Origin: an uncultured Planctomycetia bacterium
GTDB taxonomy: Bacteria > Omnitrophota > Gorgyraeia > 2-01-FULL-45-10
Direction of reading: 5' to 3'
NCBI GenBank assembly: GCA_964433975.1
Contig: CAYSSS010000004.1
Span: 1-50,671 of the forward strand
Length of the DNA stretch: 50,671 bases
Shown: positions 17,205 to 21,076 of the stretch, in pieces
How the letters are laid out: each line of letters opens with the position of its first letter
Position numbering within the stretch: position 1 is the stretch's first letter
The notes under the pieces: generated by a model
The model's input: the letters and a program-made list of their open reading frames with translations, nothing else
Databases searched by the model: none
What the model was told of the DNA's origin: nothing
Position numbers and translations under genes: made by a program

Positions 17205-18274
17205 TAAAGAAGCCTTATACGATTACCGGCCTCGACATAGGTTCGTCGAAAATATCCGCAGCGACGCTTGAGATATTTGACGGGACCCGGTCGAGGATAC
17301 TCGCGTACGAGAGCCAGCCGTCGAAGGGCGTCTTCAGGGGGGGCGTGGTGAGCCTCGACGAGGCCTCCGGCTCAGTTGCCAAAGTTTTAACGAAGCTTAC
17401 CGGGAAGATATCCAGGCCACAGGGGAATATCTACGTTAATATTAGCGGTGACACCGTATCGGGAGAGAGATCCCGTGGCATGATCCCATTATCCTCAAGG
17501 GGCAGGGAAGTCACGAGGTCAGACATGGCCAAATGCGTAAATGCAGCAGGCACCATAAGGCTGCCGTTCGACAGGGAGATCATACATAGAATCGTCCTGA
17601 ACTACTCCATCGACGATCAGCCGGCCATAAAGAACCCACTTGGCCTTTATGCTTCTAGGCTGTCGTGTGAGATGTATATGATAACGGCGGGAATCAACCA
17701 TATAGAGAATCTTTATAAATGTGTCGATAACGCCGGATACGATATCGAGGGAGTCGTCTATTCCGGGGTAGCAGAGGGAGCCGTACTTTTGAAGGACGCC
17801 TGGAAGGACGAGGGCGTTCTTCTCCTGAATATAGGTGCTTCGCTTACGGAGATATCGATATTCTCCGGGGGCGTATTAAGCGCTATGAGCGTAATACCTG
17901 CCGGCGCCGTTGATATAAAAGGAGATCTCAGGGCAAGCGCTGAGTTTGATAGTATCGTCTCCAGCGTCAAGGCAAAGTGCGAAGAGTTCTCAAGTAAGGG
18001 CGAGAATATAAAGCTGGCGGTGATCGCCGGCGGATTTACTTTTTCGGAAGGGGCGGTCGACATTCTTGAGGAGAAGTTATCCTATCCTGTGAAGATGGGG
18101 GTCGTAAAGAATGTGCAGGGCAATATATCGAGCATCGACAGTATGCGAGGTTTGACCGCAATAGGACTTGCAAGATACGCGCAGGTAGAGTACCATCCTA
18201 AGCCGTTTCAGACAAAGGGCCTTGCTAAGGACATATCCGATAAGGTCGTGGATATATTCAATAACTATTTTTAG
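17201..18274 (+). CDS. ftsA: Cell division protein FtsA, shortened (357 aa)
   Basis: GLDIGSSKI phosphate-1 motif, 1C/SHS2 region, TAIGL and C-terminal amphipathic helix. The subdomain 2B region is short and phosphate-2 is degenerate (NIGASLT). Confidence 0.88.
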   Translation: MIKKPYTITGLDIGSSKISAATLEIFDGTRSRILAYESQPSKGVFRGGVVSLDEASGSVAKVLTKLTGKISRPQGNIYVNISGDTVSGERSRGMIPLSSRGREVTRSDMAKCVNAAGTIRLPFDREIIHRIVLNYSIDDQPAIKNPLGLYASRLSCEMYMITAGINHIENLYKCVDNAGYDIEGVVYSGVAEGAVLLKDAWKDEGVLLLNIGASLTEISIFSGGVLSAMSVIPAGAVDIKGDLRASAEFDSIVSSVKAKCEEFSSKGENIKLAVIAGGFTFSEGAVDILEEKLSYPVKMGVVKNVQGNISSIDSMRGLTAIGLARYAQVEYHPKPFQTKGLAKDISDKVVDIFNNYF

Positions 18275-18336
18275 GGCCCTTCAACAAAAGCTCGTGATAC
18301 TACCATGACGGGTAAGGATGAAAGATAGGAGCGGAT

Positions 18337-18780
18337 ATGCTGTATACGAAAGAGAGACGGCATTTTATAAGGCATCCGATCTGTTATCCTCTGGAATTCG
18401 AACATGCTCCGAAGAAGATTAAGGAGAGGACCAAGACCCTGAATGTGAGCGAAGGCGGTCTTCTCTTTCTTTCCAAACATCCTATTAAGAAGAACGAGAT
18501 TATAATACTTAAAATGCCTTTGCAGGACAAGGTCTTCAGGATTAGGGCCAGGGTGATGCACGCCGCTAAAGACAGGGATAATACCGGTCTCTTCAATATA
18601 GGGGTCTCATTCTATCGCTATTCGGACGCTTTTAAGGTAAAACTCGTAGAGCAGCTCTATCTAATAGATGAATACAGGATGTTGCGGTCGCTCCAGCTTG
18701 GTCATGAGTTGTCGATGCAGAAGGCGTCCGAACAATGGATAAAGCGCTATTCAAAAAGGTTTGCAAGGTTATATTGGTAA
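18337..18780 (+). CDS. PilZ-domain protein
   Basis: ERRHFIR (RxxxR) and NVSEGG (D/NxSxxG) c-di-GMP motifs, plus a helical C-terminal extension. Confidence 0.85.
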   Translation: MLYTKERRHFIRHPICYPLEFEHAPKKIKERTKTLNVSEGGLLFLSKHPIKKNEIIILKMPLQDKVFRIRARVMHAAKDRDNTGLFNIGVSFYRYSDAFKVKLVEQLYLIDEYRMLRSLQLGHELSMQKASEQWIKRYSKRFARLYW

Positions 18781-18824
18781 AACGTCACTCGCAAAAAAAG
18801 AGGATCTATTTTTATAAAGAAATG

Positions 18825-18871
18825 TCTGCCTGCCCTGTACCATATCGGTACAGGGCAGGCCGGCAGGCAGG
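18825..18871. repeat. Nested REP-like palindrome
   Basis: GCCTGCCCTGTACC-ATATC-GGTACAGGGCAGGC (perfect 14-bp stem) nested in CTGCCTGCC...GGCAGGCAG. Confidence 0.75.
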
Positions 18872-18881
18872 GAGGACTGCA

Positions 18882-19211
18882 ATGAATAAGATACTATCAG
18901 TATGTTTTGCTCTGCTTGTCATCTTCGCGTCATCCGTTCCTTTATATTGTCAGAGCGATTCTCTCGTGGACGGCATAAAGACCGTTGACGGCCATGTGGT
19001 ATCAGTGGATCTGGAGAACTCAAAAATAGTGGTCAGGTCATCCGAAGTTATGACGTTTTCAGTCCCTTCAGACGCCAATATCATCGATTCGGACGGTTTC
19101 AGTATGGAGCTGGCGGGCGTAGGCGTGGGCGATTATGTCACAGTTAGCTATCATAACGACAAATCCGGAGATCGCATAATGAACGGCATGGAGGTGGAAT
19201 ATAAGAGTTAG
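18882..19211 (+). CDS. Small exported beta-rich (OB-fold-like) hypothetical protein
   Basis: RBS GGAGGA; signal peptide MNKILSVCFALLVIFASS; GHVVSVD...GVGDYVTVSY pattern. Confidence 0.7.
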   Translation: MNKILSVCFALLVIFASSVPLYCQSDSLVDGIKTVDGHVVSVDLENSKIVVRSSEVMTFSVPSDANIIDSDGFSMELAGVGVGDYVTVSYHNDKSGDRIMNGMEVEYKS

Positions 19212-19227
19212 GCGTTATAAAGAGCCC

Positions 19228-19256
19228 TTGCCGTTACAGCTTTTATAGGGTATACT
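19228..19256 (+). promoter_or_regulatory. Sigma70-type promoter
   Basis: TTGCCG (19228-19233), 17 bp, TATACT (19251-19256). Confidence 0.7.
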
Positions 19257-19280
19257 ATTTAGCAGAGAGAGGTGATCATT

Positions 19281-19325
19281 ATGTGCGCGACATGTGGTTG
19301 CCGGAAGAAAAAACCGAAGAAATAA
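19281..19325 (+). CDS. 14-aa micropeptide MCATCGCRKKKPKK with a CxxCGC metal-binding motif
   Basis: Upstream promoter, RBS GAGGTG 6 nt before ATG, and downstream terminator-like hairpin. Too short for the supplied ORF track. Confidence 0.65.
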   Translation: MCATCGCRKKKPKK

Positions 19326-19343
19326 AAGATATAATTTTCCAGC

Positions 19344-19382
19344 GAGACGGCCGATAGATCGATCGAGAGGCCGTTTTTCTTT
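19344..19382 (+). terminator. Intrinsic terminator or attenuator after the micropeptide
   Basis: GAGACGGCC...GGCCGTTTT stem running into TTTTTCTTT. Confidence 0.6.
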
Positions 19383-19405
19383 ATGTGATCGTTTGAGGCA
19401 GACAA

Positions 19406-20200
19406 ATGCAAAAAATATTCGTGGCCTTCATCTGTATTATACTCTGCGCGTCGCCGTCTTTTTCCAAAGAAGAGATGGAGTATAAAGAATTCAAGTTTGA
19501 TGACGCCTCATGCAAAGTTGGGGTGCATTATAATAGCGCCGAAAGTGGGCTTCTTATAGGAGTTTCGGCGATAGCCACAGGTAAAGGCGCGGAGTTCAGA
19601 AAATGGGAAGTCTCCAATATAAAGGTGTATATAGACGGCCGGCGCTTTGTGCCGGATAAGGAGAGCAAGTTCTATGTTACGGAGGAGTCGTTATTCAGGG
19701 TGCCGGGCGCAATAGTATTTGCCGCGATCGGGGGTTTTGGAGAGTACGGAGGGAGCAACTTTAATAATAACCTGAGTAAGATTGGCGTCGGGCTCGGGAT
19801 GGGCCTTTTAGCGCTCCAGGCAAAGGGTGAAATAACCGGCGAGCGCTGCGTATTCAATATTCCAACGGATAAATTGGAAAAGATAGATGAGGGCCGAGGT
19901 TTCATAGAGATAACGATAGAAGATGAAGATATGCATCTTGAGGAATCTATAAAGATCGCTATCATAAAGCCTTCGGGAGAGCTGAGCGATAAGTACAATT
20001 TTTCCAATATGACCGAAAGCGGACTTTCAGGCCTCATGGATACGCTCAAGGACAGGATCGCCATGCTGGAAAAAGAGCAATCGGATTATAAATACGGGCG
20101 GGATCCGGAGTTCGACGTAATCCAGAAAAAGATAGAGAGCTGCGAGGCGCAGCGCGGCATGGCATATAAGGCGTGGTTCGAAAAGCGGGCCCAAAGATAG
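19406..20200 (+). CDS. Exported or membrane hypothetical protein
   Basis: Signal peptide, two Gly-rich hydrophobic segments and a C-terminal coiled coil; RBS GAGG. Confidence 0.75.
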   Translation: MQKIFVAFICIILCASPSFSKEEMEYKEFKFDDASCKVGVHYNSAESGLLIGVSAIATGKGAEFRKWEVSNIKVYIDGRRFVPDKESKFYVTEESLFRVPGAIVFAAIGGFGEYGGSNFNNNLSKIGVGLGMGLLALQAKGEITGERCVFNIPTDKLEKIDEGRGFIEITIEDEDMHLEESIKIAIIKPSGELSDKYNFSNMTESGLSGLMDTLKDRIAMLEKEQSDYKYGRDPEFDVIQKKIESCEAQRGMAYKAWFEKRAQR

Positions 20201-20202
20201 AT

Positions 20203-20478
20203 ATGAGCGATATGGATAAGATGGCTTACATCGAAAACCAGCGCAGGAGCTCCAAGGAGTATGAGGCCCTTTGCAGGCAGTGCGGCAAGTGCTGCGGTAT
20301 CGAAACCGATCCCTGCGCCAATCTAAAGAAAGATATATCGGGTAAGTGCTATTGCGCCGTATATGAGTCCCGCCTTGGCAGGCAGGTGACCGTATCGGGA
20401 CGCGAATTTACTTGCGTGCAAATAAGAGAAGTTGTCAAAGTCGGCCTGACCGGTATGGAGTGCGGTTATGGAAGATAA
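20203..20478 (+). CDS. CxxCxxCC cysteine-cluster protein (YkgJ-like, Zn/Fe-S chelating)
   Basis: LCRQCGKCCG...PCANL...CYCAVYESR...C. Confidence 0.75.
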   Translation: MSDMDKMAYIENQRRSSKEYEALCRQCGKCCGIETDPCANLKKDISGKCYCAVYESRLGRQVTVSGREFTCVQIREVVKVGLTGMECGYGR

Positions 20479-21076
20479 TCTACTCGATGAGAAGTTTGCC
20501 GAATGGACGAAGTCGCTTTCCGCTAAGAGTGCCAGGATATCGATATACCATCATATAAGGGATATCCCTTATATGATGGTGCCTGAGCTGAGAGATCCCA
20601 AGACCGGACCATCGGGCTTAATAAGAATGAATAGAGGATCGTGTGGCCCGAAACACTTTCTTATGGCCTTGATGATGAGCGAGCTCGGACTTCCGGTTAA
20701 GTACGTGACGTATCTATTTAACTGGAACGATCCCGCCGTAAAGTTCCCGCCCGGTCTAAAGAGGATAGTTAAGAATATGCCGATAACTGCACACCTGGCT
20801 ACAAAGATCAACATTGACGGCAGGTGGACCCTTGTGGACGCCACATACGATCTTCCCTTAAAGAAGGCCGGATTCCCCGTGAACGAATCATGGGATGGTC
20901 TCAGCGATACAAAGAATGCCGTGATCCCCATGGAAGAGGTGGTCCATGACTCATTGCAGGAGAGGCTCTCTTTTGCGGGTAAGAGGGTAGGCGAGTATAC
21001 AGATAAAGAGAGAAGGGCATACGCGGAATTTACAAAAAAATTGAATTACTGGCTCGACGAGTTGAGAAGAAGATGA
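20468..21076 (+). CDS. Transglutaminase-like (papain-fold) protein
   Basis: GSCGPKH, AHL and GRWTLVDAT give a Cys-His-Asp triad. Confidence 0.7.
   Translation: MEDNLLDEKFAEWTKSLSAKSARISIYHHIRDIPYMMVPELRDPKTGPSGLIRMNRGSCGPKHFLMALMMSELGLPVKYVTYLFNWNDPAVKFPPGLKRIVKNMPITAHLATKINIDGRWTLVDATYDLPLKKAGFPVNESWDGLSDTKNAVIPMEEVVHDSLQERLSFAGKRVGEYTDKERRAYAEFTKKLNYWLDELRRR

Follow-up and report, generated by a model that had tools for sequence, protein, structure and literature searches.

The N-terminal head of HypB, a C-x-x-C-G-C motif (CTTCGC in Escherichia coli), has picomolar affinity for Ni(II), which it binds in square-planar geometry through the N-terminal amine together with Cys2, Cys5 and Cys7 (PMC12284835); the same source, citing Chung 2008, Douglas 2012 and Hecel 2021, reports that small CxxCGC peptide models bind Zn(II), with helix formation, and Ni(II). 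E. coli HypB in which the head is missing or mutated is reported to be hydrogenase-deficient (PMC12284835). Whether or not this head is present divides GTPase-type HypB proteins into subgroups (PMC13202556). Here we analyze a minute gene encoding the same motif, located at positions 19228–19382 of a 50,671-nucleotide (nt) stretch of DNA (hereafter, the window) from contig CAYSSS010000004.1 of assembly GCA_964433975.1, an uncultured bacterium assigned to the phylum Omnitrophota. The encoded micropeptide begins with MCATCGC, that is, C-x-x-C-G-C at residues 2–7, directly after the initiator Met, ends 7 residues past the motif, and contains no His. In spacing and position, the motif is identical to the site through which E. 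coli HypB binds Ni(II) at high affinity (PMC12284835), a resemblance already recognized in an initial reading of this stretch (hereafter, the original prediction). The gene belongs to an unannotated family with a wide, patchy distribution and is subject to protein-level purifying selection. We moderately favor the reading, which draws on sequence comparison, that the product would be a trans-acting metal-binding micropeptide with a HypB-type Ni(II)/Zn(II) head and a polycationic tail, functioning as a metal buffer, carrier or chaperone.

Anatomy of the micropeptide gene

The unit comprises the following elements, all on the forward strand of the window:

19228–19233, + strand, −35-like hexamer TTGCCG (consensus scan; identical in all 4 aligned copies from the genus)
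19251–19256, + strand, −10-like hexamer TATACT, with a 17-nt spacer from the −35 element (TATACT in 3 genus copies, TATGCT in 1)
19267–19275, + strand, Shine-Dalgarno (SD) site GAGAGGTGA, 5 nt upstream of the ATG
19281–19325, + strand, micropeptide open reading frame (ORF) MCATCGCRKKKPKK, 14 sense codons, with the ATG at 19281 and the TAA at 19323–19325
19344–19382, + strand, intrinsic-terminator-like hairpin and T-tract (RNAfold, and a separate hairpin-plus-T scan, −13.9 kcal/mol)

The promoter-like hexamers, the SD site, the ORF and the hairpin with its T-tract all lie where the original prediction had placed them. The hairpin arms, ACGGCC (19347–19352) and GGCCGT (19369–19374), are followed by the T-tract TTTTTCTTT (19374–19382), and a consensus terminator scan missed this hairpin because its loop exceeds 8 nt. 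A gene start lies 24 nt 3' of the T-tract.

Taken alone, the unit is unconvincing. A 14-codon ORF by itself means nothing; the −35/−10 pair scores 9 of 12 in the consensus promoter scan, and matches at this score are no rarer than expected by chance in the scanned stretch (4 found vs 3.2 expected); the whole 156-nt unit folds no better than shuffled sequence (RNAfold, z = −1.24); and a search of window positions 18000–21000 against Rfam 15 returned nothing near the gathering score (best E 0.91). An antisense ORF overlaps the unit at 19259–19411, but it is not the conserved feature, because the variable positions coincide with third codon positions of the sense strand. It is conservation in comparison that lifts the unit above chance.

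Conservation as a block within the genus

The source genome is a 1.87-Mb assembly of 127 contigs, 88.6% complete. A search for sequencing runs covering the locus identified 7 DNA-type runs and no RNA run. Within the genus, the cassette is present in 4 of 6 genomes (G000, G001, G004 and G005), and alignment of these copies showed that the sequence from the −35 element to the T-tract is kept as one block, with both flanks diverging. The stem and the T-tract are invariant across the copies and the loop varies; no compensatory changes were found among the 4 copies, so the stem itself lacks proof by covariation. The typical gene order is ftsA-PilZ-lipoprotein-[peptide]-three hypothetical genes. In G002 and G003, the same neighborhood contains an empty site, where the lipoprotein stop codon lies a few nt before the next start codon. 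In G005, the cassette has different flanking genes, and a second copy is found between argB and argD; the source genome's own argB-argD spacer (79 nt, contig C84) contains no such ORF. The conservation of the block, the empty sites and the second copy in G005 together indicate that the cassette has been gained, lost and relocated as a unit. The proposal that this is a self-contained gene overlooked by gene callers is supported.

A family spanning bacteria, archaea and phages

The family form is MCxxCGC followed by a short KKP(K/R)K tail, 12–25 residues in all. Searching 41 related genomes for the encoded head, M-C-x-x-C-G-C, with the reversed pattern as the control, identified 18 places in 16 genomes (0 control matches). 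At 13 of these places, in 12 genomes, the head opens an ORF of 13–15 codons whose tail, x-K-K-(K)-P-(P)-K/R-K, runs to a stop codon, and all 13 ORFs are preceded by a GGAGG-type site; the pattern demands neither the tail, nor the stop, nor the SD site. The other 5 places comprise four 36–37-residue Cys-rich proteins with the same head and one apparent chance match. A pattern without the ATG but with the KKP tail recovered only the same 13 places, 13 of 13 directly behind an ATG (control, 0), so that the motif with KKP is never internal to a protein in these genomes; neither alternative start codons nor internal copies of the motif were found among them. A motif confined in this way to the N-terminus is what one would expect of a site in which the free N-terminus serves as a ligand, as it does in HypB.

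A longer pattern, the head followed by 1–2 residues and K-K-P, matched 11 of 401 genomes in a sample of the phylum Omnitrophota (0 controls). In a scan of one genome per prokaryote species, it yielded 64 loci: SD-led ORFs of 12–25 codons (40, one locus with two copies), short ORFs without an SD site that are probably due to chance (4), N-termini of HypB-like proteins (8, of which 3 were verified above the cut-off), 85-residue Nfu-like proteins (2, both verified), and other or chance matches (10). By label, the 40 SD-led loci belong to Omnitrophota (19), Planctomycetota (8), Methanocellaceae/Methanocella (9), and DPANN or unclassified archaea (4, namely, Aenigmatarchaeota, two Woesearchaeota and one 'uncultured archaeon'). 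The Planctomycetota labels are unreliable, because at least two of these loci, L034 and L044, equal L013 and L015, respectively, loci of genomes in the window's own order/class within Omnitrophota; both L034 and L044 come from public metagenome-assembled genomes (MAGs) titled 'uncultured Planctomycetia'.

In Methanocellales, the head pattern matched 15 of 15 genomes at 46 places, compared with 5 control matches. A breakdown covering 30 of these places consists of the 12-residue form MCD(T/S)CGCGKKPK (11), 22–28-residue forms with a Lys/Ala/Pro tail (3), a 27-residue variant (1), a 52–84-residue family private to Methanocella (12), and chance matches (3). The short form is present in 13 of the 15 genomes by its seven-residue head and was confirmed to the stop codon in 11. 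Copies of the family were also identified on 6 viral contigs (IMG/VR), and an Aenigmatarchaeota genome of ~1 Mb holds two. Longer tails, with AKKA/PKK-type stretches, occur in Methanocellales and phages and in a single GC-rich 'Planctomycetota' MAG; in Methanocellales and phages, these Lys/Ala/Pro-rich stretches run to 22–84 residues.

Protein-level purifying selection

The pattern of substitution is that of a protein-coding gene. Among 9 distinct Methanocellaceae copies, the variable columns at codon positions 1, 2 and 3 number 1, 0 and 10, with 166 synonymous vs 8 non-synonymous pairwise codon differences, and the ungapped identity of the flanks is 0.26–0.32; all three stop codons are used, and upstream only the GGAGGTGA site is kept. 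For 15 distinct Omnitrophota 14-mers, the corresponding values are 4, 4 and 12 variable columns, 429 synonymous vs 224 non-synonymous differences and a flank identity of 0.29–0.31, with substitutions at residues 3, 4, 8, 9 and 13. Across 48 distinct members, conservation upstream is confined to G-rich columns at −12 to −7 that resemble an SD site, and residue 4 is mostly Thr (A at codon position 1 in 37 of 48, C at position 2 in 40 of 48). The micropeptide gene is under purifying selection at the protein level.

Relationship to HypB

Because profile scans take sequences of at least 20 residues, the 14-mer is too short, and longer relatives were scanned instead. The 20–28-residue relatives aligned to HypB_prefix_1 and HypB_prefix_2 (NCBIfam NF053667 and NF053668) over model positions 1–10 to 1–24, and these were the only curated models they touched. 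Other lineages carry this head in fusion with HypB G-domains (3 verified) and with Nfu-like domains (2 verified). True HypB proteins with this head score 258–276 bits on TIGR00073, and some HypB proteins follow the head with K-K-(x)-P. The N-terminal position, the invariant Cys and Gly, the HypB_prefix matches (below the cut-off) and the occurrence of the head on HypB and Nfu-like proteins tie the micropeptide to the HypB module and speak against a Cys pattern that arose by chance.

The two Nfu-like cases, L019 and L040 (from Phycisphaerae/Pirellulales MAGs), are 85-residue Nfu/NifU-C-terminal-like proteins with the N-terminus MCxxCGCGEK, and the head is accordingly not confined to HypB. HypB itself, a G3E P-loop GTPase with a CH...C site, was considered as the identity of the product and ruled out, given that the ORF stops after 14 codons; the ORF that follows the micropeptide gene showed no HypB match.

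The micropeptide is not hydrogenase-specific, because no HypB was found in the source genome and most carriers lack it. Among nickel-related functions, the source genome encodes a CbiM-type Ni/Co uptake component; NicO was not found in it, HypA gave weak sub-threshold matches only, Prismane matched a single fragment, and the large-subunit matches for NiFe hydrogenase are limited to the N-terminal part. None of this suffices to identify a client enzyme. The 215-residue HypB of Methanocella sp. MCL-LM has no such head, an observation compatible with a head supplied in trans but no proof of it.

Gene neighborhoods

All-against-all clustering of the neighbor proteins showed that the context of the family is lineage-specific only. 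In seven Omnitrophota genomes from two families, the gene lies within an arginine operon (argJ-argB-[peptide]-argD-argF), 10–25 nt upstream of argD, a spacing that makes translational coupling to argD possible; an Arg codon is present in only 1 of these 7 copies. At five loci (L028, L060, L062, L074 and L081), the order is [peptide]-terminator-promoter-nrdJ, with the class II ribonucleotide reductase gene ~100–200 nt downstream; the paired ACACAATAT...-type boxes in the nrdJ promoter resemble NrdR boxes or operators. An Rfam search of eight related loci detected only an archaeal 16S rRNA fragment and no riboswitch between the peptide gene and nrdJ. In Methanocellaceae, the peptide gene follows an aIF2-alpha/PAC2 cluster and is convergent with a KH/RIO-type gene.

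Many other copies are lone units among unrelated genes, with TTGACA/TATAAT-like hexamers and a hairpin with a T-tract. A terminator-like hairpin with a T-tract was found no more than 130 nt downstream in 18 of 30 distinct bacterial loci, compared with 5 of 30 in the upstream control and 10 of 30 in the reverse complement; 2 of the 18 sites are spurious, because they lie inside argD, leaving 16 of 23 non-operonic loci. Outside operons, the majority of copies form monocistronic units that end in a terminator of their own.

Nearest neighbors were compared with Pfam for 63 of 86 ORFs, from 51 distinct loci; the 23 ORFs dropped came mostly from near-duplicate or same-context loci, and also from one locus lacking an SD site. 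Redox and repair proteins (MsrA, MsrB, rubrerythrin, nitroreductase, FMN reductase) appeared at single loci each, and no cysteine-biosynthesis operon was found downstream of any copy. The search for relatives and their neighbors proposed along with the original prediction turned up homologs in abundance, in neighborhoods that differ.

Proposed function and alternative explanations

Under the reading we favor, the segment 19228–19382 would be an autonomous monocistronic micro-gene, with its promoter, SD site, 14 codons and terminator, and its product would be translated and act in trans. Removal of the initiator Met is expected when Cys occupies position 2, owing to the specificity of methionine aminopeptidase, and would leave a free N-terminal Cys. 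The alpha-amine and the thiolates of Cys2, Cys5 and Cys7 could then form a compact N1S3 site, as in E. coli HypB; for Zn(II)/Ni(II), we also considered a head with S3 ligation. The R/K-K-K-P-K-K tail, a short polycation in which the Pro is conserved, most likely would anchor the metal head to a polyanion, such as RNA, DNA, the ribosome or acidic lipid, or to a partner. Lys/Ala/Pro-rich cationic tails generally bind nucleic acids or other polyanions, and the growth of the tails into Lys/Ala/Pro-rich stretches across the family points to such a role. The micropeptide would then be a stand-alone version of a head module found elsewhere in fusion with HypB, with Nfu-type proteins and with longer Lys-rich tails. 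A metallopeptide with a polybasic tail, one of the two options in the original prediction, is consistent with the invariant Cys and Gly, the N-terminal position and the continuum of longer tails.

Several observations weigh against this reading. The three thiols would suit Cu(I), Co(II), Fe-S, As(III) or redox chemistry just as well. The invariance of Cys and Gly is partly built in, because the search patterns fix their codons; no such constraint applies to the third codon positions, to the SD site, to the stop or, where only the head was searched for, to the tail. The HypB_prefix scores, 14–17.5 bits, are below the cut-offs of 30 and 35 for models of 72 and 64 positions, respectively. HypB (TIGR00073) exceeded the cut-off in 1 of the 41 related genomes, a non-carrier, and was not found with the same model in the source genome (88.6% complete); the ~1-Mb Aenigmatarchaeota genome with two copies of the peptide gene yielded no HypB over the cut-off and no NiFe hydrogenase. 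A CbiM-type Ni/Co transporter is encoded by 8 of 12 carriers vs 16 of 29 non-carriers, that is, without a signal in this comparison among related, incomplete genomes. No metal, cysteine or regulatory family recurs among the 63 nearest-neighbor proteins compared with Pfam, and the distribution is patchy (11 of 401 genomes in the phylum sample).

The most substantial alternative is a product that is translated and acts in trans without metal, either as a dithiol/disulfide redox peptide or, like other very small proteins, as a regulator that binds and modulates a protein; the Cys residues would then have a structural or redox role, with the tail serving for docking. Such a peptide would share all the evidence for a real gene, and the absence of linkage to metal genes, the scattered redox/repair neighbors, nrdJ at five loci and the arginine operon would all suit it. 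Nevertheless, we consider it rather unlikely, because the C-x-x-C-G-C spacing right behind the Met is that of a characterized metal site, the head recurs on two types of metallochaperone, HypB and Nfu-like, no single partner gene co-occurs, and a plain CxxC redox couple would leave the strict N-terminal position unexplained. At the opposite extreme, there might be no gene at all, only an ORF that arose by chance within a small non-coding RNA, or what is left of the 5' end of a decayed hypB gene. The ORF is indeed very short, the transcript would resemble a small RNA with a terminator, and many HypB proteins begin with the very residues of the head, some of them continuing with K-K-(x)-P. This possibility is, however, hardly tenable in view of the third-position variation with a constant peptide, the unalignable flanks, the changing stop codons, and the stop that follows the tail in 13 of 13 short copies among the relatives and in 40 of 64 loci of the species scan; in addition, no Rfam match was obtained (best E 0.91), no HypB-like sequence lies downstream and no HypB was found in the source genome. 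Nor is the gene a broken 5' end left over from a longer one, the outcome that the original prediction had recognized as fatal to it.

That prediction also offered a leader peptide attenuating the downstream genes. In such a scheme, the ORF would be a cis-acting leader or upstream ORF: how its Cys or Lys/Pro codons are translated, as determined by the availability of charged tRNA or by stalling of ribosomes at KKKPKK, would govern the terminator at 19344–19382 or the translation of the next gene. The terminator-like hairpin 3' of the ORF, the gene start 24 nt past the T-tract, and the seven genomes in which the ORF precedes argD by 10–25 nt within an arginine operon are in line with this scheme; Lys/Pro runs, moreover, can slow ribosomes. 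We nonetheless regard it as very improbable. The fold is unremarkable (z = −1.24), with no antiterminator pairing conspicuous as an alternative; the downstream gene varies within the genus and across the 51 distinct loci; at the five nrdJ loci, a terminator and then a separate promoter intervene; selection acts on amino acids at all positions, including Gly, and not on codon identity; there are no tandem regulatory codons, with Arg in 1 of the 7 arginine-operon copies; no copy is followed by a cysteine-biosynthesis operon; and archaea and phages carry the same peptide in unrelated contexts. For the genes downstream of the unit in the window, the leader proposal is not supported: they are not conserved partners, and no cysteine or metal operon follows.

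Returning to the metal-binding micropeptide, a bolder extension appears doubtful, albeit worth stating: the MCxxCGC-KKPK peptides might be the smallest conserved encoded metallochaperones or carriers known, a mobile 'metal hook' of 12–14 codons that moves among bacteria, archaea and phages, acts in trans, and could be the evolutionary origin of the N-terminal heads carried by HypB of subgroups 2 and 3 and by some Nfu proteins. Such a hook could, for example, supply the high-affinity Ni site to a head-less HypB, as in Methanocella, or feed Ni, Co or Zn clients while tethered by its tail to RNA or DNA.

Novelty and significance

Exact look-up of three variants of 20–25 residues, plus one further 20-residue variant, found none of them among ~15 billion predicted proteins, and no NCBIfam or Pfam family covers the 20–25-residue variants. 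Literature searches with the peptide strings, CxxCGC and keywords returned no description of a free-standing form, HypB supplementary alignments being outside their scope. The chemistry of the head is already known; a free-standing, conserved, cross-domain micro-gene appears to be new.

If the proposed reading is correct, the nickel-head chemistry of HypB exists as a free-standing product of 12–14 residues in two domains of life and in phages, a very small new player in metal trafficking encoded by micro-genes that escape standard annotation. These would be among the shortest prokaryotic genes under clear protein-level selection, and could explain where the modular N-terminal heads of metallochaperones come from. 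Testing the hypothesis is inexpensive, as the peptide is open to synthesis, and there are carriers in culture, among them one or more Methanocella strains for which the complete genome is available.

Other Cys-head proteins and features of the window

Several additional groups of small proteins share the Cys-rich head. The four 36–37-residue Omnitrophota proteins (L002, L007, L016 and L018, from G024, G011, G035 and G029) contain 9–10 Cys in the arrangement MCxxCGC(T/S)PCxxCGK...C.C.KK and, judged by sequence, look like an undescribed metallothionein-like family; they have no Pfam or NCBIfam match above the cut-off, and 1 of the 4 is catalogued, as 'hypothetical protein'.

The 52–84-residue family of Methanocellales (L091, L097, L098, L102, L103, L106, L109, L110, L114, L115, L119 and L120), with the sequence MCISCGCGMPxDKHNNPxLIT...AAKNIA...C, occurs in one to several copies per genome. 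It yielded 32 matches, to Methanocella-type sequences only, 'hypothetical' where named, and several public calls begin 8 residues late, losing the Cys head. The same order that carries the 12-residue form also encodes a second short paralog of 22–28 residues, MCK(S/G)CGC(S/A)TKPK followed by a Lys/Ala/Pro tail (L092, L093 and L099).

The phage versions of the micropeptide (IMG/VR; L126, L128, L129, L133, L136 and L140) have 15–21 residues and begin with MCATCGC(R/K)KKPK... Neighbors were covered for four of these six contigs. A membrane protein of ~140 residues is encoded directly upstream in L126, L129 and L136, and a hydrolase-like gene (...IEGPKDNETKYG...PWCGSF), which we take to resemble CHAP/NlpC, lies directly downstream in L126, L133 and L136 and one gene further in L129. 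A distinct set of phage proteins of 52–59 residues (IMG/VR; L121, L122, L125, L130, L132, L134, L135, L137 and L138) starts with MCATCGCGKKPAKK; most contain a DxNKNGxLDxxDF loop that presumably is EF-hand-like. They often precede a 76–84-residue Cys- and Lys-rich protein that starts with MC(A/K)(K/S)CGCGC, so that the tandem genes share the head.

Within the window, two genes downstream of the micropeptide unit encode a 101-residue protein with a CxxCxxCC pattern (20173–20478; no Pfam match at E ≤ 1) and a 202-residue protein with a weak match to the transglutaminase core (20468–21076; Pfam, E 6e-5); neither accompanies the peptide gene beyond the genus. Upstream, a 37-nt palindrome (TGCCTGCCCTGTACC...GGTACAGGGCAGGC) at 18826–18862 separates the PilZ gene from the lipoprotein gene. 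This REP-like repeat has a second copy in the genome (contig C14:2939-3001) and several short matches in the genus member G003, and its position implies that the 158-codon ORF called at 18735 probably begins at a later Met (MNKILS...).

Comparison with known systems

Attenuator leader peptides are similar in size to the micropeptide and share the arrangement of an SD-led mini-ORF followed by a terminator, and some copies of the micropeptide gene precede argD. Unlike leader peptides, however, the micropeptide lacks runs of codons for a regulated amino acid, a conserved downstream operon and an alternative pairing, and stand-alone copies occur. Bacterial metallothioneins are likewise small and Cys-rich, with thiolate ligands, whereas the 3 Cys in the 14 residues of the micropeptide would suffice for a single site but not a cluster. 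Against the Pfam metallothionein models, the 36-mer relatives reached a best E of 0.02 (Metallothio_Euk, one 36-mer), below the cut-off.

In the nickel hook of NiSOD and in ATCUN sites, a few N-terminal residues, including the free amine, form the whole metal site. The ligand sets differ from those proposed here: NiSOD employs His1 and backbone amides, and ATCUN sites employ His3, whereas the micropeptide has no His. The synthetic CxxCGC peptides derived from HypB are about equal to the micropeptide in size, but are laboratory constructs without a polybasic tail, whereas the micropeptide is encoded and conserved, with its own promoter and terminator. HypB itself differs in having the GTPase domain, the rest of the N-terminal extension and the His-rich stretch, all absent from the micropeptide, the gene for which is unlinked to hyp or hydrogenase genes. 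The N-terminal site of HypB and the head of the micropeptide nonetheless have the same motif in the same position, residues 2–7, with Thr frequent at position 4.

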